The position numbers were made by a program, and so were the translations under genes. A model generated the notes under the pieces. The model searched no databases. It was not told the origin of the DNA and saw only the letters and a program-made list of their open reading frames with translations. From contig PFBI01000006.1 of assembly GCA_002773395.1 (NCBI GenBank), positions 156,657 through 220,656 on the forward strand: 64,000 nucleotides of DNA. The letters are read 5' to 3'. Shown here in pieces: positions 26,608 to 62,365 of this stretch (positions within the stretch are counted from its first letter, which is position 1; every line of letters begins with the position of its first letter). The DNA comes from Candidatus Kaiserbacteria bacterium CG10_big_fil_rev_8_21_14_0_10_47_16 (GTDB lineage Bacteria > Patescibacteriota > Minisyncoccia > Phycocordibacterales > UBA918).

Positions 26608-26629
26608 CGTATAGACTCCTATCCAGTTT

Positions 26630-26728
26630 ACCCCGTTAGAAATTATTGAGCGGTTTCTTTTGTTTTCAATATTTTGTGTGTTGTTCATACTTATGTACAT
26701 TGACGCTTTTGATAATTTCTAACGGGGT
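26630..26728. repeat. MITE-like element: perfect 17-bp terminal inverted repeats (accccgttagaaattat / ataatttctaacggggt) enclosing 65 nt, between the ABC ATPase and permease genes
   Basis: Arms at 26630-26646 and 26712-26728 are exact reverse complements. The arms resemble those of the element at 59900-60022. Confidence 0.45.
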
Positions 26729-26741
26729 TAATTCCCATACG

Positions 26742-31022: not shown

Positions 31023-31367
31023 CCGGGCTCGGTCACGAATCACTAAGTATATTTTTGCTACGCTAAAATATACTTAGTGTTCTCGACCCGTGAAAAGCAA
31101 TTCAATATTGCTTTTCACCACGCCTCCCTCGTCCACAGGACGCGGCGCTCCGGCTTTCGAGCCGAGGCTCGGCGTCTAACTCTAGTTCACTACGTTCACA
31201 AGAGTTACCTGCCCGAGCATTTGAATTCTTGCATTAGAAATAGCAAAAATATACAAATGCTTTTCGAGCCCGACCGTAGGACGCGCCTGCGTCCTACTCC
31301 CCAAGCACACATACACAAAAACCGCCCTGAGGCGGTTTTTGTGTATGTGTGCTTGGGGCCGGGCTCG
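31023..31367. repeat. ~307-bp insert next to tRNA-Phe, flanked by an exact 19-nt direct repeat of the tRNA 3' end (gtgcttggggccgggctcg at 31023-31041 and 31349-31367)
   Basis: The direct repeat is visible in the sequence. The interior is hairpin-dense and includes a 28-bp perfect palindrome at 31299-31358 that incorporates the tRNA acceptor end. Confidence 0.5.
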
Positions 31368-31422
31368 AACCGGCGACCCCTTCCTCTTCAGGGAAATGCT
31401 CTACCAACTGAGCTACCCAAGC
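31350..31422 (-). tRNA. tRNA-Phe (anticodon GAA)
   Basis: Reverse complement: GCTTGGG-TA-GCTC AGTTGGTA GAGC-A-TTTCC CTGAAGA GGAAG-GGGTC-GCCGG TTCGAGC CCGGC CCCAAGC A. Confidence 0.8.
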
Positions 31423-42458: not shown

Positions 42459-42590
42459 ATTTATTAATATTATTTCCTCCTGTAATACATCGATTTCCGA
42501 GAAAATCAACTATTGATAGATCTATTTTTATCACGCCTTTCAAGATAAGTCAAGGCATCCAGATACCTCCCTCCCCGTATGTAGCGGTAG

Positions 42591-42618
42591 TTGACAATGT
42601 ACCTATATATGCTATAAT
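42591..42618 (+). promoter_or_regulatory. strong sigma-70 promoter (TTGACA-N16-TATAAT with TG extension) giving a leaderless transcript for the 42628 gene
   Basis: -35 at 42591-96, -10 at 42613-18, ATG at 42628. Confidence 0.55.
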
Positions 42619-42627
42619 GCATTCAAT

Positions 42628-43371
42628 ATGACAGAAGAAGGAAAAGGGCGCCTTGTCACAGGGCTTACCATACTTGGCTTTATAGCGGTGCTGGCACTGT
42701 GTGTTTTTGCTGCAGTTAAGCTCGTTCAACTTACTCCTAACATCTTCTCTTCCCTTGCGAACGTAACCGTCGGTACACAGGATGAATCCGACAGTACAGT
42801 AGCTACTACCGACACCACTAACGGTCCCTCTACCGTTACTATTATTCGGAATCCTGCGACAAGTACGCCCCCAACAGTAACTCCTGCAACAAGCACGCCG
42901 CAGCAACGACCGCCAGTTACACCACCGACGACACCGCAGCAACCTCCTGTGACGCCACAGCCACAACCCGAAACCTATACATACAATTACACATATCTTC
43001 CAACGTCAGATCCAAACGGGTACACCGACCTCGTCGCGCGTGTATACGCAACAGGGTACGTGCGTAATCACACCTTCGTTGAAAGTCCGTACGTTGATAC
43101 GAATGATACCGCCGCGGTGCAGATATCAGTGAAAAATACGGGTACCAAAACATCTGACCGTTTCGATGTTGATATCACACTTCCAACCGGCGATGACTTC
43201 TCGCTTGATAACCAGGCAGGTATTCAGCCAAATGAAGAAGTGATCATCACCTTCTCGTTTGATCCACGAAGCCTCTCAGGTACCCGATCATTTGATGGAC
43301 GAGTCTCTGTATCGAACGATGTAAATGTTTCAAGCAACTCATTCTACGGAACCGTACAATTTCGAAACTAA
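42628..43371 (+). CDS. hypothetical secreted protein with Pro/Thr-rich linker
   Basis: Signal anchor, then TSTPPTVTPATSTPQQRPPVTPPTTPQQPPVTPQPQP, then about 130-aa beta-rich domain. Confidence 0.45.
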   Translation: MTEEGKGRLVTGLTILGFIAVLALCVFAAVKLVQLTPNIFSSLANVTVGTQDESDSTVATTDTTNGPSTVTIIRNPATSTPPTVTPATSTPQQRPPVTPPTTPQQPPVTPQPQPETYTYNYTYLPTSDPNGYTDLVARVYATGYVRNHTFVESPYVDTNDTAAVQISVKNTGTKTSDRFDVDITLPTGDDFSLDNQAGIQPNEEVIITFSFDPRSLSGTRSFDGRVSVSNDVNVSSNSFYGTVQFRN

Positions 43372-43376
43372 ATAAG

Positions 43377-43412
43377 AAAAGCCCCGCGGCAGAGCCGCGG
43401 GGCTTTTCTTAT
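43377..43412. terminator. bidirectional terminator (convergent with gyrB)
   Basis: aaaagccccgcggc-agag-ccgcggggctttt. Confidence 0.7.
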
Positions 43413-43424
43413 TTAAAAACAGTT

Positions 43425-45518
43425 CTAAACGTCGACGTTCGCAAGACGAGCATTGGACTGGATAAACGACTTCCGGTTTGATACGTCTGTCCCCATCAAG
43501 ATATCAAATACCTTATCTGCTTCCTGTGCATCTTCAACGTGAACCTGCTTAAGTAAGCGGTTTCCTGGATTCATAGTCGTTTCCCAAAGCTCATCGGGGT
43601 TCATTTCCCCCAGTCCCTTATATCGTTGGATACGAACACGCGACGCCTTCTTTGTTGACTCTACTTCTTCATCTTCCTCTGGAAGCGGTTCTGGTTCCTC
43701 ACCATCTTCACTCACGACCTCAACTTCAACAACCTCTTCCCCGAGACTCTTGAGTATCGCAACCTTCTCTTCATCGGTATATGCGTAGTGGGTTTCTTTA
43801 CCCTTTTGAATCTTATAGAGTGGCGGTTGCGCAATGTAGAGATACCCACCATCAATAATCGGACGGAAATATCGGAAAAAGAGTGTGAGGAGCAGCGTAC
43901 GAATGTGGGCTCCATCGACGTCCGCATCCGTTGCAATGATGATTTTGTGGTATCGAAGTTTTGTAATATCGAATACGTCACCAATAGCAGTGCCGAGCGC
44001 AACGACGAGATTCTTAATCTGTTCAGAGCCAAGCATGCGGTCAATACGTGCACGTTCAACGTTGAGAATTTTTCCACGGAGCGGAAGGATTGCCTGTGTA
44101 CGACGATCACGTCCCATCTTTGCAGAACCACCCGCAGAGTCTCCCTCTACAATGAAGAGCTCTGACTCTTCAGCACTCTTTGTCTGACAGTCTGCGAGCT
44201 TACCTGGCAGCGTCATTCCTTCGAGAACTCCCTTACGGAGTACCGAGTCTTTCGCTGCCTTCGCTGCCTTACGCGCCTTTACCGCAATAACCACCTTGTT
44301 GATGACTGCCTTTGCGTCATCAGGGTTCTCTTCGAGGAACATTGAAAATGCTTCACCAAAGACTGACTCCACCGCACTGCGCGCTTCTACAGAACCAAGC
44401 TTCGCTTTCGTTTGGCCTTCAAACTGAATCTCGGGCATCTTTACCGATACCACCACCGTGAGACCTTCGAGCACGTCGTCACCGGTAAATCCATCGTCTT
44501 TATCTTTAATCAGATTGTTCTTCTTTCCGTACGTATTGAGTGTTCGCGTGAGTGCCGTCTTGAATCCAGTGATATGAGTCCCGTGTTCACTGTTATAGAT
44601 ATTGTTTGCAAACGCAGAAATGCGTGCAGAAATATCGTCTACGTACTGAAGCGCTATTTCTACCGACTGTACGTCCGAATCATACGGCTCATCAATTGTT
44701 CCCTTTTCAACATAAAAAATATTCTTGTGTACCGGTTTCTGATAGTGGTTATTGAATGCCACGAGTGACTTCAGTCCTCCTTCAAAATAGAAGGTTTCAC
44801 TTGGCACCTCGTGTTTTTCATCCGCAAGATAAATAACATCTTCGAGTGACTCGGGGTCAAGCTTTGCATCAGATTCGCGTGCGTCGATTACAGAAAGGCG
44901 CATTCCTTTTACGAGATATGCTTGCTGCCGCAAGTGAGCAACGATTCGCTTCCATTCATATTTAATCTCTGTAAAGATAACAGGGTCAGCTTGGAACATG
45001 ACAATCGAACCATTGAATTTTGTGGCAGATAGTTTCTTCACTCGAGCCTTCGCCTTACCAATGTTGTACTCCTGCATGTGGTGCCCACCATCCTTGTGCA
45101 CATCAACGCGCATGTGCGTAGAGAGTGCATTTACTACAGAAGAGCCCACACCGTGAAGACCTCCTGATACTTTGTATCCTGTGTCCTCCCCACCGAACTT
45201 ACCTCCGGCATGGAGCGTTGTCATAATCGTCTCGAGTGCAGACACTTTTGTCTGCTTGTGAATATCAACAGGAATGCCGCGCCCGTTGTCGACGACACGA
45301 ATGTAGTTATCAGGGAGAAGTGCAACTTCTACTCGGTCAGCAAAACCACCCATCGCTTCATCGCGTGAGTTATCAAAGATCTCCCAAATAAGGTGATGGA
45401 GTCCATCGGGCCCTGTAGTACCGATGTACATACCCGGTCGCTTTCGCACTGGTTCGAGACCTTCTAGGATTTGGATTGATGAAGCACTGTACCCTCCTTT
45501 TTCAGATTTTTTTGCCAT
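43425..45518 (-). CDS. gyrB: DNA gyrase subunit B
   Basis: MAKKSEKGGYSASSIQILEGLEPVRKRPGMYIG..., GHKL ATPase, Toprim (EGDSAGGSAK). Confidence 0.95.
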   Translation of the reverse strand: MAKKSEKGGYSASSIQILEGLEPVRKRPGMYIGTTGPDGLHHLIWEIFDNSRDEAMGGFADRVEVALLPDNYIRVVDNGRGIPVDIHKQTKVSALETIMTTLHAGGKFGGEDTGYKVSGGLHGVGSSVVNALSTHMRVDVHKDGGHHMQEYNIGKAKARVKKLSATKFNGSIVMFQADPVIFTEIKYEWKRIVAHLRQQAYLVKGMRLSVIDARESDAKLDPESLEDVIYLADEKHEVPSETFYFEGGLKSLVAFNNHYQKPVHKNIFYVEKGTIDEPYDSDVQSVEIALQYVDDISARISAFANNIYNSEHGTHITGFKTALTRTLNTYGKKNNLIKDKDDGFTGDDVLEGLTVVVSVKMPEIQFEGQTKAKLGSVEARSAVESVFGEAFSMFLEENPDDAKAVINKVVIAVKARKAAKAAKDSVLRKGVLEGMTLPGKLADCQTKSAEESELFIVEGDSAGGSAKMGRDRRTQAILPLRGKILNVERARIDRMLGSEQIKNLVVALGTAIGDVFDITKLRYHKIIIATDADVDGAHIRTLLLTLFFRYFRPIIDGGYLYIAQPPLYKIQKGKETHYAYTDEEKVAILKSLGEEVVEVEVVSEDGEEPEPLPEEDEEVESTKKASRVRIQRYKGLGEMNPDELWETTMNPGNRLLKQVHVEDAQEADKVFDILMGTDVSNRKSFIQSNARLANVDV

Positions 45519-45596
45519 AGTATAAAAAATGAGCAAACTGCTCAGACCCTTAGATTATAGCAAATAATACATAAAAAGCATACCGAAAAATGATGA

Positions 45597-45635
45597 AAAA
45601 GCCCTGAAATTGCAAGGCAATTTCAGGGCTTTTTC
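45597..45635. terminator. bidirectional terminator (13-bp stem), ancestral rpoD terminator
   Basis: aaaaa-gccctgaaattgc-aag-gcaatttcagggc-ttttt. Confidence 0.65.
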
Positions 45636-45836
45636 TAGTACGATTTGAGCGTCGTCGAGCTTGGAGAAACAATGAGCTATGATAATAGCGATTATGTTTC
45701 TCCAGTCGTCGAGCCAAAAGAAATTAAGGAAATGCCAATGGCATTGACTATAATTTCTCTGTGCCAGACCTTTTGAATTTTTGACAAATTCCCTGTCAAA
45801 AATTCAAAAGCAAATCGTACCTTAGTACGATTTGAG
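45636..45836. repeat. ~173-bp insert at the extreme 3' end of rpoD, flanked by a 14-nt direct repeat (tagtacgatttgag at 45636-45649 and 45823-45836) that contains the rpoD K-S-Y-stop codons
   Basis: The interior has two copies of gtcgtcgagc, an inverted repeat ggagaaaca/tgtttctcc, and a perfect 17-bp palindrome cttttgaatttttgaca-aattccc-tgtcaaaaattcaaaag (45773-45813). Confidence 0.45.
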
Positions 45837-47168
45837 ACGTCTGGCCTTCTCGTGTTGCCGAATCTTCTCGAGGGCTTTTGCCTCAATCTGACGAATACGC
45901 TCTCGCGTTACACCGAACTCTTTCCCTACCTCTTCGAGTGTATGGTAAGTACCATCAATGAGTCCGTGACGCATTTCAAGAATCTTCCGCTCCTTCTCTG
46001 ACAATGTGTCGAGAATTTCCTGCATCTGATCCGCAAGAATACGGTGTGCAACTTCTTGGTCTGGAGAGATGATTTTGTCGTCTGAGATAAAGTCAGAGAG
46101 ACGTGAACGATCATCATCGTCAGCTCCCACCGGCAGCTCGAGTGAGATGGTATCCTGACTAATCTTTTCAATTTGGTAAATCTTTTCTACTTCAACGTTC
46201 ATTTCAGTTGCGATCTCTTCTGGCATTGGATCACGCCCAAGATCTTGTGCTAACCGTCGTGACACCTGCTTGTACTTCGCCATTGTTTCCACCATGTGCA
46301 CCGGAATACGAATCGTACGCGATTGGTCAGCGAGCGCTCGGGTAATTGCCTGACGAATCCACCATGTTGCATAGGTCGAGAACTTGAATCCCTTTTCATG
46401 ATCAAATTTATCAACAGCCTTAAAGAGACCGAGGTTCCCTTCCTGAATAAGGTCGAGGAGTGTTAAGTCGGGAGACCGACCAACATACTTCTTTGCAATC
46501 GAAACCACGAGACGGAGGTTTGCGCGCGCAAGCAAGTTGCGAGCCTCTTCATCCTCCTCAATAATACGCTTCGCAAGATCTCGCTCTTCCTGTGCTGAGA
46601 GGAGTGGGTACTGTCCAATTTCTCGGAGGTACATTTGAATAGAGTCGTGTCCGTTATCAGAACGTTTGTAGACGTTGCGCTTATCGTGCAACATGTCGCT
46701 CACGTCATCCCCAAGCATTCCTCCGCTTTCAAGAATATCAACACTTGCCGTCGCGAGACGTTCGTAGAGATCTTCAAGAAATGGTACGTCGCGCTCAATC
46801 TGTGGAAACGCTTTGAGAATTTCGTCGTATGTGACATATCCACGATCACGCCCTGCTTGCAGGAGCTGCTGCGCTTTACTTTCGTTTTCTTTTTCGAGCT
46901 TTGTGCGTTTCTTCGGCTTCGCAGGTACGACGCGCTTTGCCGCTTTCTTTGCAGTTTTCTTAGGTGCTGTCTTCTTTACTGGCTTCTTGGTAGCTTTCTT
47001 CACTACCTTCTGAGTCTTCTTTTTGGCTACTTTTTTAGTAGTTTTCTTCGTTGTTTTTTTGGCAGTTGTGTTTTTAGCTTTCTTTGAAGCCACTTTTTTT
47101 GTTGCCTTTTTTACGGTTTTTTTGACCGCTTTTTTTACTACTTTTTTTGTTGCCTTTTTGGCAGCCAT
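45822..47168 (-). CDS. rpoD: RNA polymerase sigma-70 factor with about 100-aa lysine/alanine-rich (AKK-repeat) N-terminal extension
   Basis: Regions 2-4 (...[18 protein letters not shown]..., ...[24 protein letters not shown]...). N-terminus [21 protein letters not shown].... Confidence 0.9.
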
Positions 47169-47223
47169 AGTGAAGCCCACTATACCTTACACCAGAGAAA
47201 AGTCCAGAGCCCCGAGGATTCTC

Positions 47224-48933
47224 TTAAAGGGTAATCGTAATATGTAACTGATGTTGCGAATCCGTCATTTCACCAATCAAGGCTGGGATATCGTCCGAGT
47301 CTCCTCGTCGCTCCGCTTCTTGGATGCGTGAGCGGATGTCTGCAGCACGTCTTCGTGCCATAAGTCTCGCACACTCGGTCAGTCGATCTGAAAGTTCTTC
47401 ACGCAATTGCCGATCACTATAAGCACTAAACTCCTCTTCGAGTGTGAAGGCGAGTTTATTACGTCGTCCAATATCTGAATGTATTTCTTCGGTGATACCG
47501 AGTGTTTGTAAATGTTTCTCAAGTGCTTCCCCGAGTGTTTTTCGGTCGGAGGACAAGAGCAGGTCGCGCATGACAAGGAAATAGGTGACCAAATCCTCGT
47601 ACCGTGTGTTTGTCTGGACTGGCTCTTGCGCCATCGCGCGATACTCATCTGCCGGTTCTCCTTTTCCTTCCTCATTCAATCGCTCCACTTCAAAATGTAT
47701 CCCCTCTTTTGTTGTCTCGAGTGCTTTGGCAATAACGTTTTCAAAATGTTCACGGTCAATGCGATTTGGCATTCGTGCAAGGATCGGAAGAATTTCTTCT
47801 CGCACCTGTAGTTTATAGGTACGATCATCCTTCAAATCTCGCTTCAGTACACTAAGCAAGAACTCAACAACATGGAGTGCTTCCCCCACCATGTGTTTAA
47901 AGCGCTGCGAATCTTCTTTAATAATATCTGCCGGATCTTTCCCATCTTCAATATTCACTACCTTCACGTCCATACCGCGCGCAAGCATCATACCCGACGC
48001 ACGCTTCACTGCTGCAATGCCTGCTCTATCTGAATCAAGCGCAAGTACCGCTCTATTTGAGAGTCGCTGTAGTAGCTCAATATGATGCGCTGTAAGCGCA
48101 GTGCCTGAAACCGCAACCGTATTGCTATAGCCTGCTTGGTGCGCGAGCACAAGATCAAACTGTCCCTCCACAAGGATAGAAAAATCGAACTTACGAATGC
48201 TCTGCTTCGCCTTATCGTACCCAAAAAGAATATCTGACTTTTGATAAAATTCTGTCTCTGGAGAGTTTACGTACTTTGGTGTTTCTTTATCTTGCGAAAG
48301 CGTTCGTCCTGAGAAGGCAACGATGCGCCCACTGTTGTCGGCAATCGGAAACATAATGCGGTTTCGAAATACATCATAGGGCTCTTTGCCTCCGTCGGCT
48401 GTTTTGATAAGGCCTGCACTCTGTATCTGCGCATCCGTATACCCCTTCTCTTGCAAGTGCTCACGGAGTGAACGCCATGCATCAGGCGCAAAGCCAATGC
48501 GCCACGTGTGTATCGTCTTACCAGAGACACCGCGATCCAAGACGTAATCCTGTGCACCTTTGGTATTTACTCCCTGCTGAAAGAAGAATTTCGTTGCGTC
48601 TTCAATGAGTACATACTGCGTATCACGCGCATCACGCTTTTGCGGATCTTCTTGTACGAGTTCCACTCCCGCCTTTTCTGCAAGAATAGCGAGCGCTCCT
48701 TTGAAATCGACTCCCTCCATCTTTTCTATAAACGTAAAGACATCTCCCCCTTGATTCGATGAAAAACAATAGTACATCCCGCGGTCCGGAGAAACATAAA
48801 ATGAGGGTGTCTTCTCAGTCGTAAACGGTGACTTCCCTTTATAATTCTTCCCCGCTTTGTGAAGCTCGACATATGACGAAACCACATCGAGAATGGAGAG
48901 TCTCTCTTTGATTTTCGTTACATTGTCATTCAT
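47224..48933 (-). CDS. dnaG: DNA primase (zinc-finger ligand positions substituted)
   Basis: TOPRIM (...VEGQFDLV...), preceded by GKNYKGKSPFTTEKTPSFYV...YYCFSSNQGGDVFTF where the canonical CPFH...CFGC ligands read S,T,C,S. Confidence 0.85.
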   Translation of the reverse strand: MNDNVTKIKERLSILDVVSSYVELHKAGKNYKGKSPFTTEKTPSFYVSPDRGMYYCFSSNQGGDVFTFIEKMEGVDFKGALAILAEKAGVELVQEDPQKRDARDTQYVLIEDATKFFFQQGVNTKGAQDYVLDRGVSGKTIHTWRIGFAPDAWRSLREHLQEKGYTDAQIQSAGLIKTADGGKEPYDVFRNRIMFPIADNSGRIVAFSGRTLSQDKETPKYVNSPETEFYQKSDILFGYDKAKQSIRKFDFSILVEGQFDLVLAHQAGYSNTVAVSGTALTAHHIELLQRLSNRAVLALDSDRAGIAAVKRASGMMLARGMDVKVVNIEDGKDPADIIKEDSQRFKHMVGEALHVVEFLLSVLKRDLKDDRTYKLQVREEILPILARMPNRIDREHFENVIAKALETTKEGIHFEVERLNEEGKGEPADEYRAMAQEPVQTNTRYEDLVTYFLVMRDLLLSSDRKTLGEALEKHLQTLGITEEIHSDIGRRNKLAFTLEEEFSAYSDRQLREELSDRLTECARLMARRRAADIRSRIQEAERRGDSDDIPALIGEMTDSQHQLHITITL

Positions 48934-48942
48934 ATACGTTGT

Positions 48943-49398
48943 CTAACTTACGTCACTGAGTACTTCACCTGCGTGTACTGCAGGTTTTACCTTTTCGTAT
49001 ATCTTTGCAATCTTCCCTGCTTCATCAATTAAAAAACTTCTGCGTACAATACCTTCGTACTCCCGGCCGTACATTTTCTTCTTCTGCCACACACCGTAGG
49101 CTTGTACCACCTTTTTATCTTCATCTGCAAGGAGTGGGAACGGGAGTGTAAACTTCTCTGCAAATCTTTTGTGACTTGCAACCGAGTCAGCACTCACCCC
49201 AAAAATAACGAGTCCGTTCTTTTTAAAGTCTTTGTACCCATCACGAAAATTGCAGGCTTCGGTGGTGCATCCCGATGTGTCGTCCTTTGGATAGAAGTAG
49301 AGTAAAACCTTTTTTCCTGCGTAGTCTTTCAAAGAATGGACCGTCCCATTCTGGTCCTTAAGTTTAAATGCTGGAGCTTTTTTCCCAATCTGTATCAT
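48943..49398 (-). CDS. bcp: thioredoxin-dependent peroxiredoxin (Bcp/AhpC-TSA family)
   Basis: PKDDTSGCTTEAC active-site motif. Confidence 0.8.
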   Translation of the reverse strand: MIQIGKKAPAFKLKDQNGTVHSLKDYAGKKVLLYFYPKDDTSGCTTEACNFRDGYKDFKKNGLVIFGVSADSVASHKRFAEKFTLPFPLLADEDKKVVQAYGVWQKKKMYGREYEGIVRRSFLIDEAGKIAKIYEKVKPAVHAGEVLSDVS

Positions 49399-49537
49399 AA
49401 ATATTTTCTACCTCGCGCGTACAATCAGTGACATACGAGGAGCACAAGAAAAATAAAACGAGACGTACTTTGATGGTACGATGATTTTTATGTTTCGTAG
49501 TGCGACAAAATAGGTCGCGATTGTATGTGCGCTGTTA

Positions 49538-49780
49538 CTATAGTAGCACAGTCACTAAACCCCTACTTACCTCGAGCATTCCGCCATTTGCTTCAAAGAA
49601 AAGCTCTGTTCCCTCGGGAGTGCGGACCGTAATAGCCCCCTTTTTCAGTGGTGAAATGAGGGGTGTATGCTCTGCAAGAATCGTCATTTCCCCTTCAACG
49701 CCAGGTACGATCATAGACGCCGCATCTCCGCGAAAGAGCGCTTCATCTACTTTTGCAATGGTGAGTGGAAATGTTTTCAT
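49538..49780 (-). CDS. atpC: F-type ATP synthase subunit epsilon (N-terminal beta-sandwich only, 80 aa)
   Basis: Position after atpD; ...IVPGVEGEMTILAEHTPLIS.... Confidence 0.6.
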   Translation of the reverse strand: MKTFPLTIAKVDEALFRGDAASMIVPGVEGEMTILAEHTPLISPLKKGAITVRTPEGTELFFEANGGMLEVSRGLVTVLL

Positions 49781-49784
49781 GTAA

Positions 49785-51185
<1,401 letters not shown>

Positions 51186-51257
51186 TCACTCTGTTCTCTA
51201 TTAATACTCTTGAGAACTGTAACCAAAGCACCTCGTGAGGCGCGCTCGTTACAGCAC

Positions 51258-52166
51258 TCAAACTTCCTTCATCGCCTCCATACCACCACTGATCTCTGAT
51301 ACTTCAGCAGTAATAACCGCCTGACGTTCCTTATTGAACTTCAGCGTCAGCGACTTAATCATTTCTTTTGTCTTATCGGTTGCGTTCTTCATTGCGATCA
51401 TACGCGCAGAATGTTCGCAGGCCTTACTCTCGATCAACATATGGAAAATCATAATGTTGATGAGCTGCGGCATGAGACTCTTAAGAACCGTCTCAGCGTC
51501 CGGCTCATACGTGTAATCACTCCCCCGCATAAGCTCGCTTTCATCTCCCGCAAACATTCCTTCCTTTGGACGAATACCGGCAACGATATCGCGCAGTACT
51601 GACGGCTTCAGTGGAAGAAGTTGCTGTGACGTTGGCCGCTGTTCAAAGGTTGAGACAAATGTTTGATAATTCACATGTACCTCTTTATACACACCACTTG
51701 CAAACGCATCCGAAATTTTTGTTGCGATATCTTCAACATCAGCAAGTGTGAAGTCGTCGGCAACACCGACATACTCCGCGATGACCTTTCCTTTTAGTTG
51801 GCGCCGCGCAAACTCAACAGCTTTGCGTCCAATACAAATCGAGTCGCACGCATCCATACCAATGTACTGCTCAGCTTGTTTCAATACCGCACTGTTGACG
51901 CTTCCTGCGAGCCCTTTATCACTGGTGACAAGCACAAGAAGAATACGTCCTTCAGGACGACTCTCAATATACGGAAGGAGCGCGCGATCACCCGTCACCG
52001 ATAGGTGCTCAAGCATACGTGCAGCGGCATGTGCGTACGAACGACTGGCAAGCGCACGTTCCTGACTCTTGCGCATTTTCACTGCAGACACAGCCTCCAT
52101 AGCCTTGGTCACTTGGCCGGTTTTCTTTGTCGCAACTATTTTGTTTTTAATGTTTTTGAGTGCCAT
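51258..52166 (-). CDS. atpG: F-type ATP synthase subunit gamma
   Basis: 302 aa, position, conserved N/C-terminal helices. Confidence 0.85.
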   Translation of the reverse strand: MALKNIKNKIVATKKTGQVTKAMEAVSAVKMRKSQERALASRSYAHAAARMLEHLSVTGDRALLPYIESRPEGRILLVLVTSDKGLAGSVNSAVLKQAEQYIGMDACDSICIGRKAVEFARRQLKGKVIAEYVGVADDFTLADVEDIATKISDAFASGVYKEVHVNYQTFVSTFEQRPTSQQLLPLKPSVLRDIVAGIRPKEGMFAGDESELMRGSDYTYEPDAETVLKSLMPQLINIMIFHMLIESKACEHSARMIAMKNATDKTKEMIKSLTLKFNKERQAVITAEVSEISGGMEAMKEV

Positions 52167-52184
52167 AACGTACTGCGTGTGTGC

Positions 52185-53753
52185 TTACTTTGATGTGTAG
52201 AGGTCGCTGTGTGTGTCCTTAAAATCTGCAATCGCTACATCCATCTTCGCTGCGTCTTCATCGGTGAATGACTGTTCCTTTTCGATTGTATCGAGGAGGT
52301 TCTTTCGGTCACGTTCAACGAAGGCAACATACTTCTCTTCAATTGCAGAAACATTCTCTACTGGTGCTCCGTCCATGATGCCGTTGTTTGCTGCATAGAG
52401 CATGAGTACTTGCTTATGGAACGCAATCGGTTGATTACGACGCTGTTTGAGAAGTTCGGTAAACTTGCGGCCGTTCTCAATACGCTTCTTCGTATCATCG
52501 TCGAGGTCTGCAGCAAACTGCATGAATGCTTCAAGCTCTCGGAACTGTGCGAGCTCGAGACGAATCTTTCCTGCCACCTTCTTCATCGCCTTTGTCTGCG
52601 CTGAAGATCCCACACGTGATACCGAAATACCTACGTTGAGTGCTGGACGCACACCTTTGTTGAAGAGATCCATTTCAAGGAAAATCTGTCCGTCAGTAAT
52701 TGAAATCACGTTTGTTGGAATGTACGCAGATACGTCACCTTCCTGTGTTTCAATAATTGGAAGTGCGGTAATAGAACCGCCGCCAAGCTCTTTTGAAAGC
52801 TTTGCAGAACGCTCAAGAAGACGTGAGTGAAGGTAGAAAATATCTCCAGGATACGCTTCACGTCCTGGTGGTCGACGAAGAAGGAGTGACATCTGGCGGT
52901 ACGCAACCGCATGCTTTGAAAGGTCATCAAATACCACCACGACGTCACGCCCCTTCAACATGAAGTACTCAGCAATCGCAACTCCTGCAAACGGTGCAAG
53001 GAAGAGAATCGGTGATGCTTCTGATGCTGATGTTGAAACGACAACGGTGTACTCCATCGCACCTGCTTCTTCAAGCGTTCGCACAATGTTTGCGGTCTTT
53101 GATTGCTTCTGACCAATTGCAACGTAAATACAAATTGGACGCTTTTCCTTTGGCTCGTATTTCTGATTGATGATCGTGTCGATTGCAATCGTTGTCTTTC
53201 CGGTGCCACGGTCACCAATGATGAGCTCTCGCTGTCCGCGACCGATTGGGATCATTGAATCAATTGCTTTGATACCGGTGTGTATCGGCTCATTCACACT
53301 ACTGCGTTCCATAACACCAAACGCGACACGCTCAATCGGCATATCCTCGTCTGCTTTAATAGCACCACGGTCATCGAGTGGTTCCCCGAGAGGATTCACT
53401 ACACGTCCGACGATGTCTTCACCTACAGGAATAGAGAGTAGCTTTCCGGTACGCTTCACCGTCATTCCCTCTTTCACGGAATCACCACCTCCGAGAATTA
53501 CCACCTTCACCGTCTCTTCCTCGAGATTGAGAATGAGTCCGAGCGGTGATTCACCCGATTCGATTGCGTCTTTCAGGCTTTGACCACCTGCAGTATCGAA
53601 CGCCACCATCTCCATCATCTGCGCTGATTGAAGACCTTCGATTTCAGCAATACCATCAGCCACGCTGATGACGGTACCAATTTCTTTTGCTTCATTCCCT
53701 ACTTCAAGAGATGCGATCTCTTTTTTTATTCGTTCGATAACTGCTGTGCTCAT
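52185..53753 (-). CDS. atpA: F-type ATP synthase subunit alpha
   Basis: GDRGTGKT P-loop. Confidence 0.95.
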
Positions 53754-53762
53754 AGTGTGTAA

Positions 53763-54155
53763 TTAATAACTAATGCTCTTCTGATAAAGTGAAAGTAATT
53801 TTGTTCGGTAGCTCGCGTCAACTTCTGTGTTTTTGTGTCGTACGATAAATCCGCCGGTGAGGCGTTCATCAACAACATCCTTTGTGTGTCCTTCCCCTGC
53901 TCCCGTCGTATCAAGTGCTGCCGAGATGGCGGTCTTGAGGCGTTTGAAGTCTCCCTCTTTCGCAACAGTCACCACTGGCGTCTCTGACGATTCACGAAGT
54001 GCCTCGTACTTACGAAGTTGTGCGTAGATTGAGGTGCGAAGCTTCTGGTGTCCTCGTTTTTCAAGAACCGTATCAAGTCGCGCAAGAACATCCTTCGGCT
54101 GAAGGCCATCAAGCATTGCGTCGTATGTTGCTATTGCGTACGATTTTGACAACAT
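53763..54155 (-). CDS. atpH: F-type ATP synthase subunit delta (short, 130 aa)
   Basis: Position between atpF and atpA; OSCP-like C-terminus ...TGGFIVRHKNTEVDASYRTKL. Confidence 0.6.
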   Translation of the reverse strand: MLSKSYAIATYDAMLDGLQPKDVLARLDTVLEKRGHQKLRTSIYAQLRKYEALRESSETPVVTVAKEGDFKRLKTAISAALDTTGAGEGHTKDVVDERLTGGFIVRHKNTEVDASYRTKLLSLYQKSISY

Positions 54156-54160
54156 AGGTA

Positions 54161-54604
54161 TTATTTTTCTGCGAGCACTCGCTCTGCAGCAAGGACTGCG
54201 AGCTTGGCGATTTCTGCCTCACTCTCCTTCTCGGCTTTCGCTTTTATCTCTACTCCCTTTTTCTCAGCATCCACAATAAGCGCCTGTGCCTTTGCTTCCG
54301 CGACACCTACGAGTTCAACAGACTTTTCTGCAGCGTGTGCCTTTGCCTTTTCGGCAACGACCTCAGCTTCCTTTTGTGCTTTCGTGAGGAGACTGATTCG
54401 TTCTGCTTCTGCGTTCTCCTTCAGTGCCTTCGCATCTTCAGCATCCTGCAGCCCTTCATCGATGGTCTTCTTTCGATCATCGAGAAGCTTCAGTACTGGT
54501 GTGTAAAGGAAGTACCACAACGCACCTGCAAGCACGGCGAAGTTAAGGATCTGAATTGCGACAAGTCGCGTATCAAGTCCAAATGCATTAATGAGATCTT
54601 CCAT
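54161..54604 (-). CDS. atpF: F-type ATP synthase subunit b
   Basis: N-terminal TM plus long charged helix. Confidence 0.7.
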   Translation of the reverse strand: MEDLINAFGLDTRLVAIQILNFAVLAGALWYFLYTPVLKLLDDRKKTIDEGLQDAEDAKALKENAEAERISLLTKAQKEAEVVAEKAKAHAAEKSVELVGVAEAKAQALIVDAEKKGVEIKAKAEKESEAEIAKLAVLAAERVLAEK

Positions 54605-54793
54605 GATGTGTGATGCTTATGAGTAAGAGATTGGGCTTCGAGTGGGATAAAACGAGTTAGATGGCGTTTAAAGCTTTTCAGATTGCTTCGCATGCTAGGC
54701 GGACAAGGAAAATGATGTAAAACGTACTTGTCGTACGGTGAACATTATTTTACCGCAGTCCAACAACGCAGACGAAGTAAGCCTGAAAAGGCT

Positions 54794-55087
<294 letters not shown>

Positions 55088-55149
55088 TTACTTTATTCAC
55101 CGTAGCGAATAAATGAGAACGCACCGTGCGCGCTCTCATTTACCAACTA

Positions 55150-55956
55150 CTAATGGGGCTCTTCTACTGCAAGTTTGATGAAGAACAACGTCAAAATTGC
55201 AAAGATAAAGGCCTGAATGAACCCAACGAAGATCTCAAAGGCCATGAGCGGCACAGGTAGGAAGTACGGTAAGAAAAACAGTACCACGAGAATGAGGGTC
55301 TTTCCAGCAAAAATGTTTCCGAAGAGACGGAATGAAAAAGAGATAAGACGGGCCAATTCACTGATGAACTCAATGATTCCAATAGCGAACGCGAGCGGTG
55401 AGGAGAAGTTGAAGAACTTTCGGAAGTATTTAAAGAATCCAATCGTTACGACGCCGGCAATCTCAATGGCGAAGAACGCAATGAGCGCAAATGCGAGCGT
55501 GATGTTGAGGTCAGCTGCTGCGGGGTGGAAAAGTGTAATGGTGTCCTTTGCACTCTCACTGCCGTGCTCTACCACGGTCGTAAATGTGATTGCTTCAAGT
55601 CCTGGGACCTGCGCCACCCAGTTGATAGCGAGAATAAAGATAAAGATCGTCATAATCAGCGGAAAGTACTGTCGCGCAAGCTTCTTACTTTCAAGTACTT
55701 CTGCAATGTAATTGAACGAGAACCCGATAAGTTCTTCAACAATCAATTGGAACCGTCCCGGACGGAGCGCAAGCTTTGACCGAAGGATAATGACGAGAAT
55801 AATAACGATTGCCATCGCAAGCCACGCCGTGAGGAGGGTGTTGGTGATAGGTAGCCCGAAAAAGTGTCCGAGTATCTCTGGAGATAGATGGATAGGAAGC
55901 GCTGCTCCCTCTGATGCCGTATTTTCTGCTGCGTGTGCTACTGCTATAAATCCCAT
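55150..55956 (-). CDS. atpB: F-type ATP synthase subunit a
   Basis: 268 aa, 5-6 TM, conserved Arg-containing helix (...RLISFSFRLFGN...). Confidence 0.8.
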   Translation of the reverse strand: MGFIAVAHAAENTASEGAALPIHLSPEILGHFFGLPITNTLLTAWLAMAIVIILVIILRSKLALRPGRFQLIVEELIGFSFNYIAEVLESKKLARQYFPLIMTIFIFILAINWVAQVPGLEAITFTTVVEHGSESAKDTITLFHPAAADLNITLAFALIAFFAIEIAGVVTIGFFKYFRKFFNFSSPLAFAIGIIEFISELARLISFSFRLFGNIFAGKTLILVVLFFLPYFLPVPLMAFEIFVGFIQAFIFAILTLFFIKLAVEEPH

Positions 55957-56099
55957 ATTTTGCGCGCGTATTCTAACAGATTTAGAGTATTAAATAAAGC
56001 CGATGTTGTGGGCAGAATAATAAGAAAACGTTGCATTGCATTACCCTACGCAAAATACTATAATCGGAGGCACTGTTTCGGAGTATTTCTCTAAAACCT

Positions 56100-56170
56100 G
56101 CGGCCATGGTTAAGTGGTATAACGAGTCCTTGCCAAGGATTAGTCGGGAGTTCGATTCTCCCTGGCCGCA
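56100..56170 (+). tRNA. tRNA-Gly (anticodon GCC)
   Basis: GCGGCCA...AGTCC TTGCCAA GGATT...GGGAG TTCGATT CTCCC TGGCCGC A. Promoter TTGCAT-N17-TATAAT about 30 nt upstream. Confidence 0.8.
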
Positions 56171-56215
56171 CAAACGCGTTAAAAAGACCTCCCCTGCGGG
56201 AGGTCTTTAGCGTTT

Positions 56216-56300
56216 GTGAGCCGGAGCGATGTTTCGGCTATTCCTAATGCCGAAACCGCGAGGCCGGGGAGGAAGTGCTTATGAGCGTAAGCGAATTAGC
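56216..56300 (+). ncRNA. conserved ~80-nt hairpin element downstream of tRNA-Gly (copy 2 of 2)
   Basis: ccggagcgatgtttcggctattcctaatgccgaaaccgcgaggccg...cttatgagcgtaagcgaattag; preceded by a long terminator hairpin (56176-56214). Confidence 0.4.
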
Positions 56301-56338
56301 AACTTGACCCCAATATAGAAAACGTGTGACCCATCCTT

Positions 56339-57088
56339 CTAAATATTTTTCAACGTTTTTTCTCTCAGCTCTTCGTTTTTTCTCTCTAAAGTAGAATACT
56401 TTTCTTTAAAGTCACTACATAATGTAACTAAAGGGTAGTCCTCTACAGCACGATTTACTAAACCCAAAATACCAATTCCTAGATTTGCAGTCATCCAAAG
56501 ATCGGCTTTGTAGTATTTCTCATCTACTACCTCAAAAAATGACACGCTGAATTTACCCTCATTAGTTACCTTCACACCTCTCCACGCATCGATGATATTT
56601 GCATGAACAGATTGAAGCGACGCCCTTTCTTTAAACCCCTTGAGAGAAGAGCTTCCAACTGGATACTGCGCACTCAGCCAGTTGAACATTTTTGTCCTTA
56701 ATTTATCGGACGCTTCAAAAACCCCATTTTTACTCTTTTTTGCAAATTTTCCATGCTCATCAGGGTGAGCTAGGGCAAAAATAGCCCACGCACCAGCTTC
56801 TGAAGCTTGGCGTATATTGAACGCCGTTTGAGATCGATGACGACGGATACTCGAGAGCGCAGCCAACATCAAGTGTTTCTGAGCGAACGAAAAGAAGGTG
56901 ATGAAAATATGAGCATTCTTTCCAGTGTCAACTATTGAAGAGTTCATAAAATTAAAAACTTCCTGAGTATGGATATATAACTCAGTATTTCTAACATCAG
57001 TCTGCATTAATATTTTATTTTCAGTCTCTGCCATCAAAAGTATGTGGTCTGGACTTGAAATAAATAATCTTTTAATTCTGTTCCACAT
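56339..57088 (-). CDS. hypothetical protein, AT-rich orphan gene adjacent to tRNA-Gly
   Basis: 249 aa, no recognizable domain; local GC is visibly lower than the flanks. Confidence 0.45.
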   Translation of the reverse strand: MWNRIKRLFISSPDHILLMAETENKILMQTDVRNTELYIHTQEVFNFMNSSIVDTGKNAHIFITFFSFAQKHLMLAALSSIRRHRSQTAFNIRQASEAGAWAIFALAHPDEHGKFAKKSKNGVFEASDKLRTKMFNWLSAQYPVGSSSLKGFKERASLQSVHANIIDAWRGVKVTNEGKFSVSFFEVVDEKYYKADLWMTANLGIGILGLVNRAVEDYPLVTLCSDFKEKYSTLERKNEELREKTLKNI

Positions 57089-57097
57089 AGTATTCTA

Positions 57098-57130
57098 ATA
57101 TTACCAAAAAACCGGCTCTCGCCGGTTTTT
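57098..57130. terminator. bidirectional terminator
   Basis: caaaaaaccggctctcgccggtttttt. Confidence 0.65.
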
Positions 57131-57133
57131 TAT

Positions 57134-59821
57134 TTACACTGCCACCTTACTCTTTGAATCCTTTTTCTTTAGACTCTTTCGATCTCCTTTCTTCTTTATA
57201 TCGAAGTCTACTTCACCCTTCTTCATTGAGACTGAAACACTTCCCCCTTGGAGCATTCCTTCTCCAACCATCATTGAAGCAACAGGAGTGAGGATCTTTG
57301 ACTGAATCACACGCTTGAGTGGACGCGCACCAAACTTTGGATCGTATCCTTCCTTGGCGATGTAATCGAGCACATCGCGCGTGACGGTAAGTTTAATATC
57401 TTTGTTGTGTAGACGCTTCTGAATGATTTCAATCTGCATCTCAACAATACTGCGAATCGTTTCTGGACTGAGGAGATCAAAGACAATGATCTCATCGAGA
57501 CGGTTGAGGAACTCTGGTCGGAAGTAGGTCTTGAGACTTTCAAGCACCTTGCCTTTCGCCTGTCCATATTGTTCGCCCTCATCGCTGTTTGAGAATCCAA
57601 ACTTCGACATACGGTCAATGTGCTCTGCGCCGATGTTTGAAGTCATGATGACAACTGTGTTTTTGAAGTTTACGCGGCGACCCTTTGCGTCAGTTAAATG
57701 TCCTGAATCAAGTACCTGCAAGAGAATGTTAAAGACTTCAGGGTGCGCCTTTTCAATTTCGTCAAAGAGAATGACTGAGTACGGTCGGTGTCGTACAATT
57801 TCTGTTATCACTCCGCCCTCCTCATGACCAACGTACCCTGGAGGTGATCCAATGATTTTAGACACAGAGTGCTTCTCCATGTACTCACTCATGTCGATCC
57901 GGATGAGTGCTTTCTCATCATCAAACATAAACTCAGCAAGTGCACGTGAAAGCTCTGTCTTCCCCACACCTGTTGGACCAAGGAAAAGGAATGAACCAAT
58001 CGGACGGTTCGGGTCTGCAATACCTGCTCGTGAGCGCTTCACGGCGTCTGCAACAAGCTTTACGGCGTGACCTTGTCCCACAACACGCTTCGTGAGTTCT
58101 TCTTCCATACGAGAGAGTTTCTTCGCTTCTTCTTCGAGCATGCGGGCTACCGGTACACCTGTCCAACGTGATACGACGAGCGCGATGTCTTCTTCAGTCA
58201 CCTCTTCTTTAAGAAGACGACGTGTACGATGGAGCTTCTTCATACGCGCAATCTTATCTTCGAGTTCTTTCTCAAGTTTTGGAATGCGATCGTATCGAAT
58301 TTCTGCAGCACGCGTAAGATCGGCAATTGCTTCTGCCTGCTCTGCTTCAACACGAAGTTCCTCAAGTGTCTTTTTCATTTCACGAATCTCGTTGAGTACG
58401 TCGCGTTCGTTATTCCACTTTGTTTCAAGCGCTTTGGTCATTTCACGAAGTTCACCAATTTCCTTATCGATTTCTCGAAGTCGCTTCCGGAGTTGTGTTT
58501 TCTTTTCAGTGATTTCTTCTTCTTTCTTAAGTGCTTCCTTTTCAATTTCAAGACGACGAACCTTACGATCAGAGACCACAAGTTCCTCTGGCTTATTCTC
58601 AAGTGAGATACGGAGTGCTGATCCAGCTTCATCAATAAGGTCAACTGCCTTGTCAGGAAGGAATCGGTCGGTGATATAGCGTGCAGATAGATTTACCGCT
58701 GCCACAATAGCGTCGTCAGTAATACGGACGCCGTGGAAGAGCTCATACTTCTCCGCAACACCTCGCATAATCGCGATTGCATCTTCGATAGATGGTTCAT
58801 TTACATGGACAGGTTGGAAACGACGGGTAAGTGCTGGGTCTCGTTCAATATATTTTTGATATTCCTTCAGTGTTGTCGCGCCAATAACACGAAGCTCACC
58901 ACGCGCGAGCGCTGGCTTCAGCATGTTTGATGCGTCCATTGTTCCTTCCGCCTGCCCTGCACCGACAATAGTGTGGAGCTCGTCGATAAAGAGAATTACA
59001 TGTCCAGCAGACTGTTCCACTTCTTTCATCACTGCCTTGAGGCGCTCTTCAAATTCTCCGCGGAACTTTGTTCCTGCAACGAGGAGTCCGAGATCGAGTG
59101 AAAGAATTTCTTTATCCTTCACTGATTCTGGAACGTTGCCCTGTACGATTGAAAGTGCGAGACCTTCTGCAATAGCAGTCTTCCCGACACCCGCTTCACC
59201 GATGAGTACGGGGTTGTTCTTCGTTCGGCGAGAGAGAATCTGTACGACGCGTTGGATTTCAACATCACGCCCAATGACGGGGTCGAGTTTATTTTCTTGT
59301 GCAAGCTTTGTGAGGTTGCGTGAGTATTTGCCGAGTGCACGGTATTTCTTCGGTTGTGTTGCATCGTCAATACCACCTTCACGAATTTCAGTGAGTGCGT
59401 TTTCAACCTGCTTCTTATTTACACCCGATTGCTCGAGCGCTTCGATAGCGGGACCTGGGTACTCGAGGAGTGCGAGGAAGAGGTGTTCAACCCCAACGTA
59501 TGCATCATGGAATCCTTCCGCAATGCGGCCTGATTTCTCAATGGCGCTCGCAAGGTCTGGTGTGAGATAGAGTTGGTATGATTGTGAAATAGCACCTCCC
59601 ATCTCTGGACCATCAAGTGCTTCGAGGAGCAGGTCGGTGAGAGCGATGACGTCGATGTCGAGTCGGTCCAAAATAGCAATAACGGTGTTCTCTTCCTGCA
59701 TCACCAAAGCAGCCAACAGGTGGGTTGGACTGACGTGATTTTGACCGCGTTCAATAGCGATTTCATGGGCTTTTCGGATTGCCTCTTTCGCGCGGGATGT
59801 GAAGTTGTTGAAATTTGGCAT
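57134..59821 (-). CDS. clpB: ATP-dependent chaperone ClpB
   Basis: 895 aa, two AAA+ modules (GEAGVGKT..., GPTGVGKT...), long coiled-coil M-domain. Confidence 0.95.
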
Positions 59822-59899
59822 AACTACAAATAGAAGCTAATAACTCCATGATGCAACAGAATGGCGAGTGAGTCAACTTTTAGATTTGCTCAACTCCCT

Positions 59900-60022
59900 C
59901 TAATTCTCTAAACGAGATGAGATGCGCGGCGTCGACGAACGAAGCTTCGAGGCGTACTTTGTCGTACGACGAGAAACTTCGTGAGGAAGACAACAAAGCA
60001 GGTCGCTCGTTTAGAGAATTAG
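59900..60022. repeat. MITE-like element: perfect 17-bp terminal inverted repeats (ctaattctctaaacgag / ctcgtttagagaattag) enclosing 89 nt, in the leuS-clpB spacer, overlapping the leuS stop codon
   Basis: Arms at 59900-59916 and 60006-60022 are exact reverse complements; the leuS stop TAA lies at 60011-60013. Confidence 0.45.
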
Positions 60023-62365
60023 ATTTAGGATTTTGCCCGGCTTATAAATGATTTTCTTAATCTCCTCTTTTTCAAGACGCTCTACGAGTGATTTACTTTC
60101 ACGAACTGCAGCGAGCGCTTCTTCTTCGGTTGCGTCTGGTGCAATCGTGATATCACCACGTGATTTTCCGTTTATCTGCACACCAATGGTGACGACATCA
60201 TCTTTTGCAAGCGCCGCATCGTACTCTGGGAATGACTGACGGTGAATCAATTCGCTCTCTCCTGCCTCGTGCCACAACTCTTCGGTGAGATGCGGTGCAA
60301 ACGGCGCAAGGAGCGTGAGGAATATTTTGTACGTTGTCTCTGTAACTCCTTCTTTCTCCGCAACGTTGAGGAAGATCATCATGCTGCTGATTGCGGTATT
60401 GAATTTGAAGGCTTCGATATCGTCACGGACTTTCTTGATTGTCTTGTGGAGTGTGCGGGTTACCTCTTCAGAATCAGAGTCGACAATATGACCCCCAAGA
60501 CCATTCACTCTCTCGAGGAATCGTTGCGCACCCACAATACCATCTGAGCTCCATGCGATCGTATTCTCAAAAGGACCCATGAACATTTCGTATACACGAA
60601 GTGCATCGGCACCATTTCGTTTTACGATATCGTCTGGATTGATGACGTTCCCCCATCGCTTCGACATCTTCTTTCCATCTTCTGCAAGAATGAATCCGAG
60701 GAATTCAAGTCGCTGAAATGGTTCAATCGTATGCACAACGCCGAGGTCGTAAAGGAACTTGTGCCAAAATCGCGCGTAGATAAGGTGGCGTACCGCATGA
60801 TCTCCTCCAACGTACACATCGACGGGCGCCCACTTCTTTTCTTTTTCTGGGTCAATGAGTGCTGCATCGTTTTTCGGATCAATGAAACGGAGGTAGTACC
60901 ACGATGAACCTGCCCACTGCGGCATCGTGTTTGTTTCTCGCTTCCCTGCGCCGCCACACTTCGGACACTCAACGTTCACCCACGCATCAATATTCGCGAG
61001 TGGTGATTCGCCTGTTCCTGTTGGCTCATAGTGCTCTACGTCAGGAAGAGTAACCGGAAGTTGATCTTCTGGCACAGGTACCACACCGCACTTCTCACAG
61101 TGAATCACTGGAATTGGTTCCCCCCAGTAACGCTGGCGTGAAAACACCCAGTCATTGAGACGATACGTACTCGTCATCTTTCCACCAACCTTTGCGGTGA
61201 TTGCAGCCTTCGCTTCTTCAGAATTCATGCCATTGAATTCACTAGACTCAACCAGTGTGCCTGCTTCATCCACTACTGTCTTAATCGATAGATTAAATTT
61301 TTCTGCAAATTCATGGTCGCGCTCGTCATGCGCTGGGACTGCCATAATCGCGCCCGTACCATACCCAGCAAGAACGTAATCGGCGATGAACACGGGAATC
61401 TCTTCTCCGTTTGCAGGATTCGTTGCGGTTATTCCCTCAAGCTTCACACCTGTCTTTTCTTTCGTCGCGTTGAGACGGTCTTGTTCACTCTTTTCTTTAC
61501 TTAGTACGATATATCGTACTACCTCGTCCCAATTTTGGATTGTATCCTTCAGTTCTGTAATAAGTTCATGTTCTGGAGCAAGTACAAGATATGTAGCACC
61601 AAAGAGCGTGTCGGGGCGTGTAGTAAATACTTTTACCTCTTCTCCTGTAGAGAGTTTGAATGTTATTTCAGCACCTTCACTCCGTCCAATCCAATTGCGC
61701 TGTGCTTCTTTGATATGTTCTGGCCACTGTGTAAGTGTGTCTAGGTCAGCAAGCATTCGGTCTGCGTAGTCGGTAATCTTAAGTACCCACTGGCGCATCG
61801 GCTTCTTTTCTACTGCACTTCCACAACGCTCGCACGTACCATCGCTCTCAAGGTCTTCGTTTGCAAGACCTGTCTGACATGATGGGCACCAGTTGATTGG
61901 TTCATGCGATTCATATGCAAGACCTTTTTCAAGGAGCTTCAGAAAAATCCACTGCGTCCACTTATAGTACGCAGGGTCAGTCGTATTTATTTCACGTGTC
62001 CAATCGTAGTTGAAGCCGAGGTGTGCAAGCTGCGCTTTGAAGTTTGCAATGTTTTTCTCTACGGCATCGCGTGGATGGATTTTGTTTTTGATCGCAAAGT
62101 TCTCTGCAGGAAGTCCGAACGCATCCCAACCCATCGGATGCAAAACCTCATAGCCCGACATTTTCTTAAAGCGAGAGTAGACGTCGGTTGCGATGTAGCC
62201 CTTCGGGTGCCCAACATGGAGCCCTTCCCCTGATGGGTACGGGAACATATCGAGAACGTAGACCTTTTCTTTATTAGAGGAGTCGTCTGTCGTATACAAG
62301 TCACTGTCGCGCCATGCTTCCTGCCATTTCTGTTCTATTTCAGCGTGATTAAATTTCTTATGCAT
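60011..62365 (-). CDS. leuS: leucyl-tRNA synthetase
   Basis: 784 aa, HIGH (HVGH) and KMSKS (KMSKR) motifs, CP1 editing domain. Confidence 0.95.
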   Translation of the reverse strand: MHKKFNHAEIEQKWQEAWRDSDLYTTDDSSNKEKVYVLDMFPYPSGEGLHVGHPKGYIATDVYSRFKKMSGYEVLHPMGWDAFGLPAENFAIKNKIHPRDAVEKNIANFKAQLAHLGFNYDWTREINTTDPAYYKWTQWIFLKLLEKGLAYESHEPINWCPSCQTGLANEDLESDGTCERCGSAVEKKPMRQWVLKITDYADRMLADLDTLTQWPEHIKEAQRNWIGRSEGAEITFKLSTGEEVKVFTTRPDTLFGATYLVLAPEHELITELKDTIQNWDEVVRYIVLSKEKSEQDRLNATKEKTGVKLEGITATNPANGEEIPVFIADYVLAGYGTGAIMAVPAHDERDHEFAEKFNLSIKTVVDEAGTLVESSEFNGMNSEEAKAAITAKVGGKMTSTYRLNDWVFSRQRYWGEPIPVIHCEKCGVVPVPEDQLPVTLPDVEHYEPTGTGESPLANIDAWVNVECPKCGGAGKRETNTMPQWAGSSWYYLRFIDPKNDAALIDPEKEKKWAPVDVYVGGDHAVRHLIYARFWHKFLYDLGVVHTIEPFQRLEFLGFILAEDGKKMSKRWGNVINPDDIVKRNGADALRVYEMFMGPFENTIAWSSDGIVGAQRFLERVNGLGGHIVDSDSEEVTRTLHKTIKKVRDDIEAFKFNTAISSMMIFLNVAEKEGVTETTYKIFLTLLAPFAPHLTEELWHEAGESELIHRQSFPEYDAALAKDDVVTIGVQINGKSRGDITIAPDATEEEALAAVRESKSLVERLEKEEIKKIIYKPGKILNLIL

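Follow-up and report, generated by a model that had tools for sequence, protein, structure and literature searches.

Genomic Organization of the leuS-clpB Region

The window analysed in this work, which is the whole stretch of 64,000 nucleotides and not the locus alone, belongs to a Paceibacteria/Kaiserbacteria-like (CPR) genome, and the closest relatives of its LeuS and ClpB proteins were found in Kaiserbacteria and Paceibacteria. The two genes are adjacent and lie on the minus strand, with a quasi-palindromic element at the end of the first and upstream of the second. The features of the region are the following:

60011..62365, minus strand: leuS, 784 aa, with a canonical C-terminus
60006..60023, minus strand: leuS-side arm of the repeat, 5' on the transcript and in register with the end of leuS in the related locus L092
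59917..60005, minus strand: interior of the element, 89 nt, imperfectly palindromic, its centre being a 10-bp helix
59899..59916, minus strand: clpB-side arm of the repeat, 3' on the transcript and exactly reverse-complementary to the leuS-side arm
59899..60023, minus strand: whole quasi-palindrome, 125 nt, predicted to form one long imperfect RNA hairpin at the 3' end of the leuS mRNA
59848..59876, minus strand: clpB promoter, TTGACT (59876-59871), 17 nt, CATCAT (59853-59848)
57134..59821, minus strand: clpB, 895 aa

The 18-nt arms TCTAATTCTCTAAACGAG (59899-59916) and CTCGTTTAGAGAATTAGA (60006-60023) are 100% complementary, with 89 nt in between. The initial annotation of this DNA had described an exact inverted repeat at 59900-59916 and 60006-60022, and our analysis bore this out with one base more on each side. 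A perfect 18-nt inverted repeat with a spacer of 20-400 nt was found in none of 100 dinucleotide shuffles of the window, and the repeat was confirmed as real and far beyond chance. In addition, the 500 nt around the locus showed zero differences across six places in separate public records (JGI, Logan, ENA) and, therefore, an assembly artefact is unlikely. Another long-spaced repeat of the window (18357/18570), the third detected, was taken as a chance occurrence, its arms being located within coding sequence and only 79% complementary.

On the transcript, the arm at 60006-60023 comprises the last base of an Asn codon, CTA ATT CTC (L I L), TAA and ACGAG. The leuS TAA stop is read from the tta at 60011-60013, so that the overlap between repeat and stop codon reported initially was also found here. 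The clpB-side arm is 22 nt from the -35 box of clpB and 77 nt from its ATG, in agreement with the earlier placement of the element less than 80 nt upstream of the clpB start. The G+C content of the 89-nt interior is 54%, vs. 47% for the window. A small ORF of 44 aa on the plus strand (59917-60051) had no match in Pfam.

Perfect inverted repeats around a short segment adjoining a promoter region are also what would be expected of an inverton, in which the arms would act as recombinase sites that flip the 89-nt segment. It must be noted, however, that one and the same orientation was found in all six public-record places and that no promoter-like site was detected in the 89 nt on either strand. 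Besides, 89 bp is short with respect to the familiar invertible segments. An inverton is thus extremely unlikely. An integron attC site was likewise considered and rejected. The outer core sites of attC have the form RYYYAAC ... GTTRRRY on an imperfect palindrome. The corresponding sequences of the arms, TCTAAAC and GTTTAGA, each exceed this consensus by one base.

Searches for Further Copies

The initial annotation had proposed to look for further copies of the element. Several collections were searched, and all of these searches were negative. No second copy was found in the 64-kb window together with approximately 1.1 Mb of other loci, a search that covered ~72 kb of the source genome, the largest contig of which measures 624 kb. 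The scans of metagenome and viral collections with 18-20-mers gave chance seeds only (the metagenome collection apparently being without the source genome), and blastn against phage and plasmid collections gave no match to the element. The element is therefore single-copy in all the data searched. With respect to its 89-nt interior, the 20-mer scans of metagenomes gave zero matches in one and three chance matches in the other, and nothing similar was found with blastn-short and tblastx in the window and all the loci.

Predicted Hairpin

The 125-nt element folded on the transcribed strand with a predicted free energy of -56 kcal/mol (z = -6.9), a stability that 0/200 shuffles reached. The plus strand gave an equally good fold, which indicates that the symmetry is at DNA level. 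Folded by itself, the 89-nt interior was a weak palindrome (z = -2.1). The predicted stem consists of an 18-bp perfect helix prolonged by an imperfect one, the stem criterion for RNase III being about two turns of dsRNA. After the hairpin, the transcript continues with GGGAGUUGAGCAAAUC, in which there is no U-tract. No Rfam family matched the window at gathering score, nor 59700-60200 at E values up to 10.

Intrinsic terminators share with the element a strong hairpin placed between the stop of a gene and the next promoter, but they have a short G+C-rich stem, a small loop and a U-tract, while the stem of the element is 125 nt long, bulged, A+T-rich at its base and without a U-tract. The terminator scan revealed nothing at the repeat element, and this candidate was rejected. 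The other clear hairpins of the window have perfect stems of 15-28 bp with loops of 3-5 nt, and mostly end in A/T runs. The longest of the many perfect hairpins of the window, with a 28-bp stem and a 4-nt loop, was located at 31299-31358, where it overlaps by ~10 nt the 3' end of the gene for tRNA-Phe (31349-31422, minus strand).

In Escherichia coli, REP-type and other stable stem-loops located just past stop codons stabilise the upstream mRNA or impede terminating ribosomes. The leuS-clpB element resembles them in the great stability of its helix and in the location of this helix, at or over the stop codon of the first of two genes that run in the same direction. Unlike them, its helix starts 10 nt before the stop, not after it, and it does not belong to a repeat family.

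Comparison with Related Loci

Among the GTDB species-representative genomes, the best LeuS match was 63% identical and none had clpB downstream. Kaiserbacteria with 78% LeuS identity keep the genes upstream of leuS (YchF, DsbB, DUF5671 and others), and downstream of it they carry, with short spacers, a sigma-like gene, DUF8128, YceG and MnmA; no long hairpin was found downstream of leuS in them. The sigma-like, DUF8128, YceG and MnmA genes are present in the window at 42458-38971, on the same strand as leuS. A block of ~17.5 kb (about 42460-60010) separates them from leuS. Its first gene is clpB, and it also contains a hypothetical gene, a tRNA-Gly gene, the ATP synthase operon and other genes. 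For its part, clpB is preceded by an aminotransferase gene in ClpB relatives with identities of 85% or lower. The presence in distant relatives of this aminotransferase gene upstream of clpB, and of the sigma-like gene downstream of leuS, argues that the leuS-clpB junction is a derived rearrangement.

The same adjacency of leuS and clpB as in the window was found in the closest ClpB relative (P0122, 91% identical; loci L092-L095). LeuS of L092 ends in ..KILNILV*, at the same position as LeuS of the window, and both flanks of the spacer align well. The spacer itself measures 68 nt in L092, in which no inverted repeat was found, vs. 189 nt in the window. This difference is made up of ~107 nt at the element and 12 nt more in the window farther downstream. 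The nearest relative with the adjacency lacks the repeat, and the element is lineage-specific.

In the alignment to L092, the models in which a single arm was kept as native scored 48 and 46, while the model with no native arm scored 39. A difference of ~107 nt has room for the 89-nt interior and one 18-nt arm only, and the other arm must therefore be native sequence. It follows that the extra DNA, taken alone, is without terminal repeats. From this alignment, the inverted repeat is seen to arise because the extra DNA reproduces exactly, at one of its ends and in inverted orientation, the adjoining native 18 nt. As the outgroups do not have the leuS-clpB adjacency, the difference itself could be due either to an insertion in the window lineage or to a deletion in the L092 relative.

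The C-terminus of LeuS

LeuS of the window ends in ..KPGKILNLIL*. In 80 related loci of species-representative genomes, the protein ends in ..PGK[LI][VLI]N[LI][VI][VLI](K)*, and several CPR relatives stop at the identical position, with NLVV*, NIVV*, NIVL* or NIVI*. The end ILNLILG* was found in the relative L091. According to this alignment, ..KPGKILNLIL* is a canonical LeuS C-terminus, and the proposal that its last residues might be specific to this lineage did not hold when this check was run.

Two further traits of LeuS were observed. Compared with that of L088, a typical Kaiserbacteria locus, the protein of the window is a mosaic, with 80-96% identity in residues 1 to ~620 and only 50-68% in the last ~170. 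The opposite was observed against L092, where the identity was 41-68% over the N-terminal part and higher, 70-82%, at the C-terminus. This mosaic points to a probable recombination breakpoint within leuS of one of the lineages. On the other hand, many LeuS proteins of Kaiserbacteria (P0002, P0004, P0011 and others; L091 4001-6844) have a NUDIX domain inserted within the synthetase and are about 905-1107 aa long, most of them 920-960 aa. The NUDIX domain is not present in LeuS of the window.

Native Arm of the Repeat

The register with L092 is satisfactory for each of the two arms. With the leuS-side arm as native, CTA ATT CTC TAA ACGAG stands in register with ATT CTT GTA TAG ACGAAC of L092; with the clpB-side arm as native, CTC GTT TAG AGAATT AGAGGG stands in register with CTT GTA TAG ACGAAC ACAGGG. 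The identities to L092, counted by eye, were 18/29 for either arm, and the alignment scores (48 for the leuS-side arm and 46 for the clpB-side arm) are a tie. Of the two, the leuS-side arm is favoured as the native one, since otherwise three hydrophobic codons, directly followed by a stop that gives the protein its canonical length, must have come from a reverse-complemented flank.

The opposite assignment would mean that the insertion took place inside leuS, three codons before its stop. The clpB-side arm would then be the original end of leuS and CTA ATT CTC TAA would be new, the former N-I-L-V* having become N-L-I-L* by means of an inverted copy of the former end of the gene and its 3' flank. 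In this regard, CTC GTT TAG of the clpB-side arm and CTT GTA TAG of L092 are alike in two residues and the TAG stop, the distance of 6 nt to A[CG]AGGG is equal in both, and the overall identity to L092 equals that of the alternative model. Against this assignment, three hydrophobic residues followed by a stop at the canonical length would be expected by chance in ~1 of 1000 cases (a rough estimate, before selection), ILNLIL is also found in L091, and ACGAG after the stop is in register with ACGAA of L092, as expected of a native leuS-side arm. An insertion inside leuS is consequently a possible but doubtful origin of the repeat. Only in this form survives the suggestion of the initial annotation that the element may have supplied or altered the end of LeuS.

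The clpB Promoter

The proximity of the element to clpB had raised the expectation of a heat-shock operator at this position. A regulatory site for clpB, either an operator bound by a heat-shock repressor or an RNA thermometer or leader, would be consistent with the dyad symmetry and with its distance to the clpB ATG. The clpB promoter, TTGACTC..TTG[CT]ATT[AG]T, is kept in six lineages, irrespective of whether the upstream gene is leuS or the aminotransferase gene, but the repeat is present in this lineage only, and lineages that share the promoter lack it. In the direction of clpB, the -35 box comes after the entire repeat element, and the clpB transcript made by that promoter therefore does not include the element, which goes against a leader or thermometer; moreover, physiological temperatures would be far from sufficient to open a helix of -56 kcal/mol. 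A distance of 89 nt between half-sites does not resemble that of known operators. The CIRCE consensus, already reported as absent, had zero matches with up to three mismatches, and no HAIR or CtsR pattern was found in the leuS-clpB spacer, matches elsewhere in the window being at chance level only. Judging from these comparisons, the repeat element is not a conserved clpB operator, the operator position suggested at first does not stand, and any role as a clpB regulatory site is very unlikely.

Between the element and the promoter, at 59877-59898, the window has 12 bases more than L092, and these give rise to another AGTTGA(G), located 17 nt before the AGTTGAC of the -35 box. The -35 region of clpB appears to have undergone a small local duplication.

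A Second Repeat-Flanked Insertion in the Window

In another element of the window, at 26627-26731, the perfect repeats are 16 nt long (CCCCGTTAGAAATTAT), and the TTAA/TAAA on either side of them has the appearance of a target duplication. In the relatives L107 and L110, the stop of an ABC ATPase gene and the ATG of an ABC-2 permease gene are 1 nt apart. In the window, 134 nt lie between the ATPase stop and the first conserved Met of the permease, ~101 nt being inserted after permease codon 4. On this comparison, the 26627-26731 element is a lineage-specific insertion that splits an ABC transporter gene pair taken to be translationally coupled.

Several observations were made around this insertion. 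It leaves a 15-codon mini-ORF (MGINPVRNYQKRQCT*), and an ORF that starts at ATG 26700 or 26688 runs in frame through its 3' arm into the permease. An alternative restart of the permease is the ATG at 26607, behind a new AGGAG. Furthermore, a 16-mer at 20441-20456, TTAATTTCTAGCGGGG, has two mismatches to the repeat of this element and is located within the leader, ~130 nt long, that precedes the gene at 20539-21750. No partner arm accompanies this 16-mer, and ~0.03 such matches are expected by chance (an estimate). The leader of this gene had no Rfam match at gathering score.

The arms of the leuS-clpB element had been considered related to this second element (given as 26630-26728). The best local alignment between them scored 16, a value of at least 16 being reached by 67% of random windows, and the resemblance is of the wrong polarity, as the outer end of one matches the inner end of the other. 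The relationship was consequently not upheld. The two elements are different things, and the one at 26627-26731 looks more like a true MITE than the one at leuS-clpB.

Bacterial MITEs and palindromic repeats (ERIC, Correia, Rickettsia palindromic elements, REP/BIME) have in common with the leuS-clpB element an imperfect palindrome of ~100-130 nt at a gene boundary, cotranscription with the flanking gene, RNA hairpin potential and overlap with coding ends. A MITE of the ERIC, Correia or Rickettsia palindromic element type, with 18-nt terminal repeats, that replaced the last codons of leuS would account for the size of 125 nt, the perfect terminal repeats, the hairpin potential and the lack of an element at the orthologous site of the nearest relative, and the window has in the unrelated 26627-26731 insertion another repeat-flanked sequence of MITE-like appearance. 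However, unlike those families, the leuS-clpB element is single-copy in every search, has no target-site duplication (its flanks, ..CCTAAA / element / GGGAG.., have no direct repeat) and carries as one arm the conserved end of the host gene, an arm that encodes the canonical LeuS end. In addition, the ~107-nt indel holds one arm only, and the poorest alignment was that of the model with two foreign arms. A MITE at leuS-clpB is, in attention to the above, quite unlikely.

Origin and Possible Role of the Element

The leuS-clpB element is an orphan quasi-palindromic insertion, and not a member of a mobile-element family, a heat-shock operator or a new system. The explanation that we consider best, with a rough probability of 0.55, is that a quasi-palindromic sequence, templated by the locus itself, was inserted at an old rearrangement junction and now forms either a stem-loop at the 3' end of the leuS mRNA or a nearly neutral scar. 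The leuS and clpB blocks were joined in a common ancestor of the window and L092 lineages, and the element lies at that junction. Either at the junction or later, a replication or repair template switch of the fold-back, quasi-palindrome type would have copied the neighbouring strand in inverted orientation.

In E. coli, the conversion of imperfect inverted repeats into perfect ones by template switching is an established mechanism (PMC7202029). The quasipalindrome mutations of this bacterium (PMC7202029, PMC6357072) share with the element a native arm and another one that is its exact inverted copy, as well as an imperfect inverted repeat with one perfectly complementary stretch, as if the nascent or opposite strand had been copied. 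They differ in being corrections of a few bases in a small existing palindrome, while at leuS-clpB 18 nt would have been copied with 89 nt in between, by a mechanism that we infer. What was found here, an arm that aligns as native and an exact inverted copy of it adjoining new DNA, is what is expected of a quasi-palindrome. A point against a fold-back origin is that a pure local fold-back predicts local sequence, and the 89-nt interior matches none. Besides, perfect arms (18/18) beside a weak interior palindrome (z = -2.1) do not fit a uniform neutral decay, and the perfect basal arms would suggest either that the event is recent or that the basal helix is under selection.

With regard to its action, the stem predicted on the leuS mRNA would begin 10 nt before the stop, and a terminating ribosome would melt it and let it re-form behind. 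As there is no U-tract, a 3'-end stem-loop is likelier than a classical terminator. Such a stem-loop would hinder 3' exonucleases and read-through and might be a substrate of RNase III, and it would partly uncouple the transcription of the housekeeping gene leuS from that of the separately promoted clpB. The element may equally be a tolerated, nearly neutral scar.

The importance of the finding is limited and it does not open a long-standing question. It provides a natural example of a mobile-element-like inverted repeat built from the end of the host gene itself, and it advises caution against annotating MITEs by their terminal repeats alone. Should the doubtful reading of an insertion inside leuS be true, a self-templated palindromic insertion would have repaired the reading frame of the essential gene that it broke and, together with the unrelated insertion at 26627-26731, it would suggest that small palindromic insertions reshape gene ends in these reduced genomes. 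If the hairpin is functional, the element would represent the insulation of a housekeeping gene and a stress gene that were joined by rearrangement in a small CPR genome.
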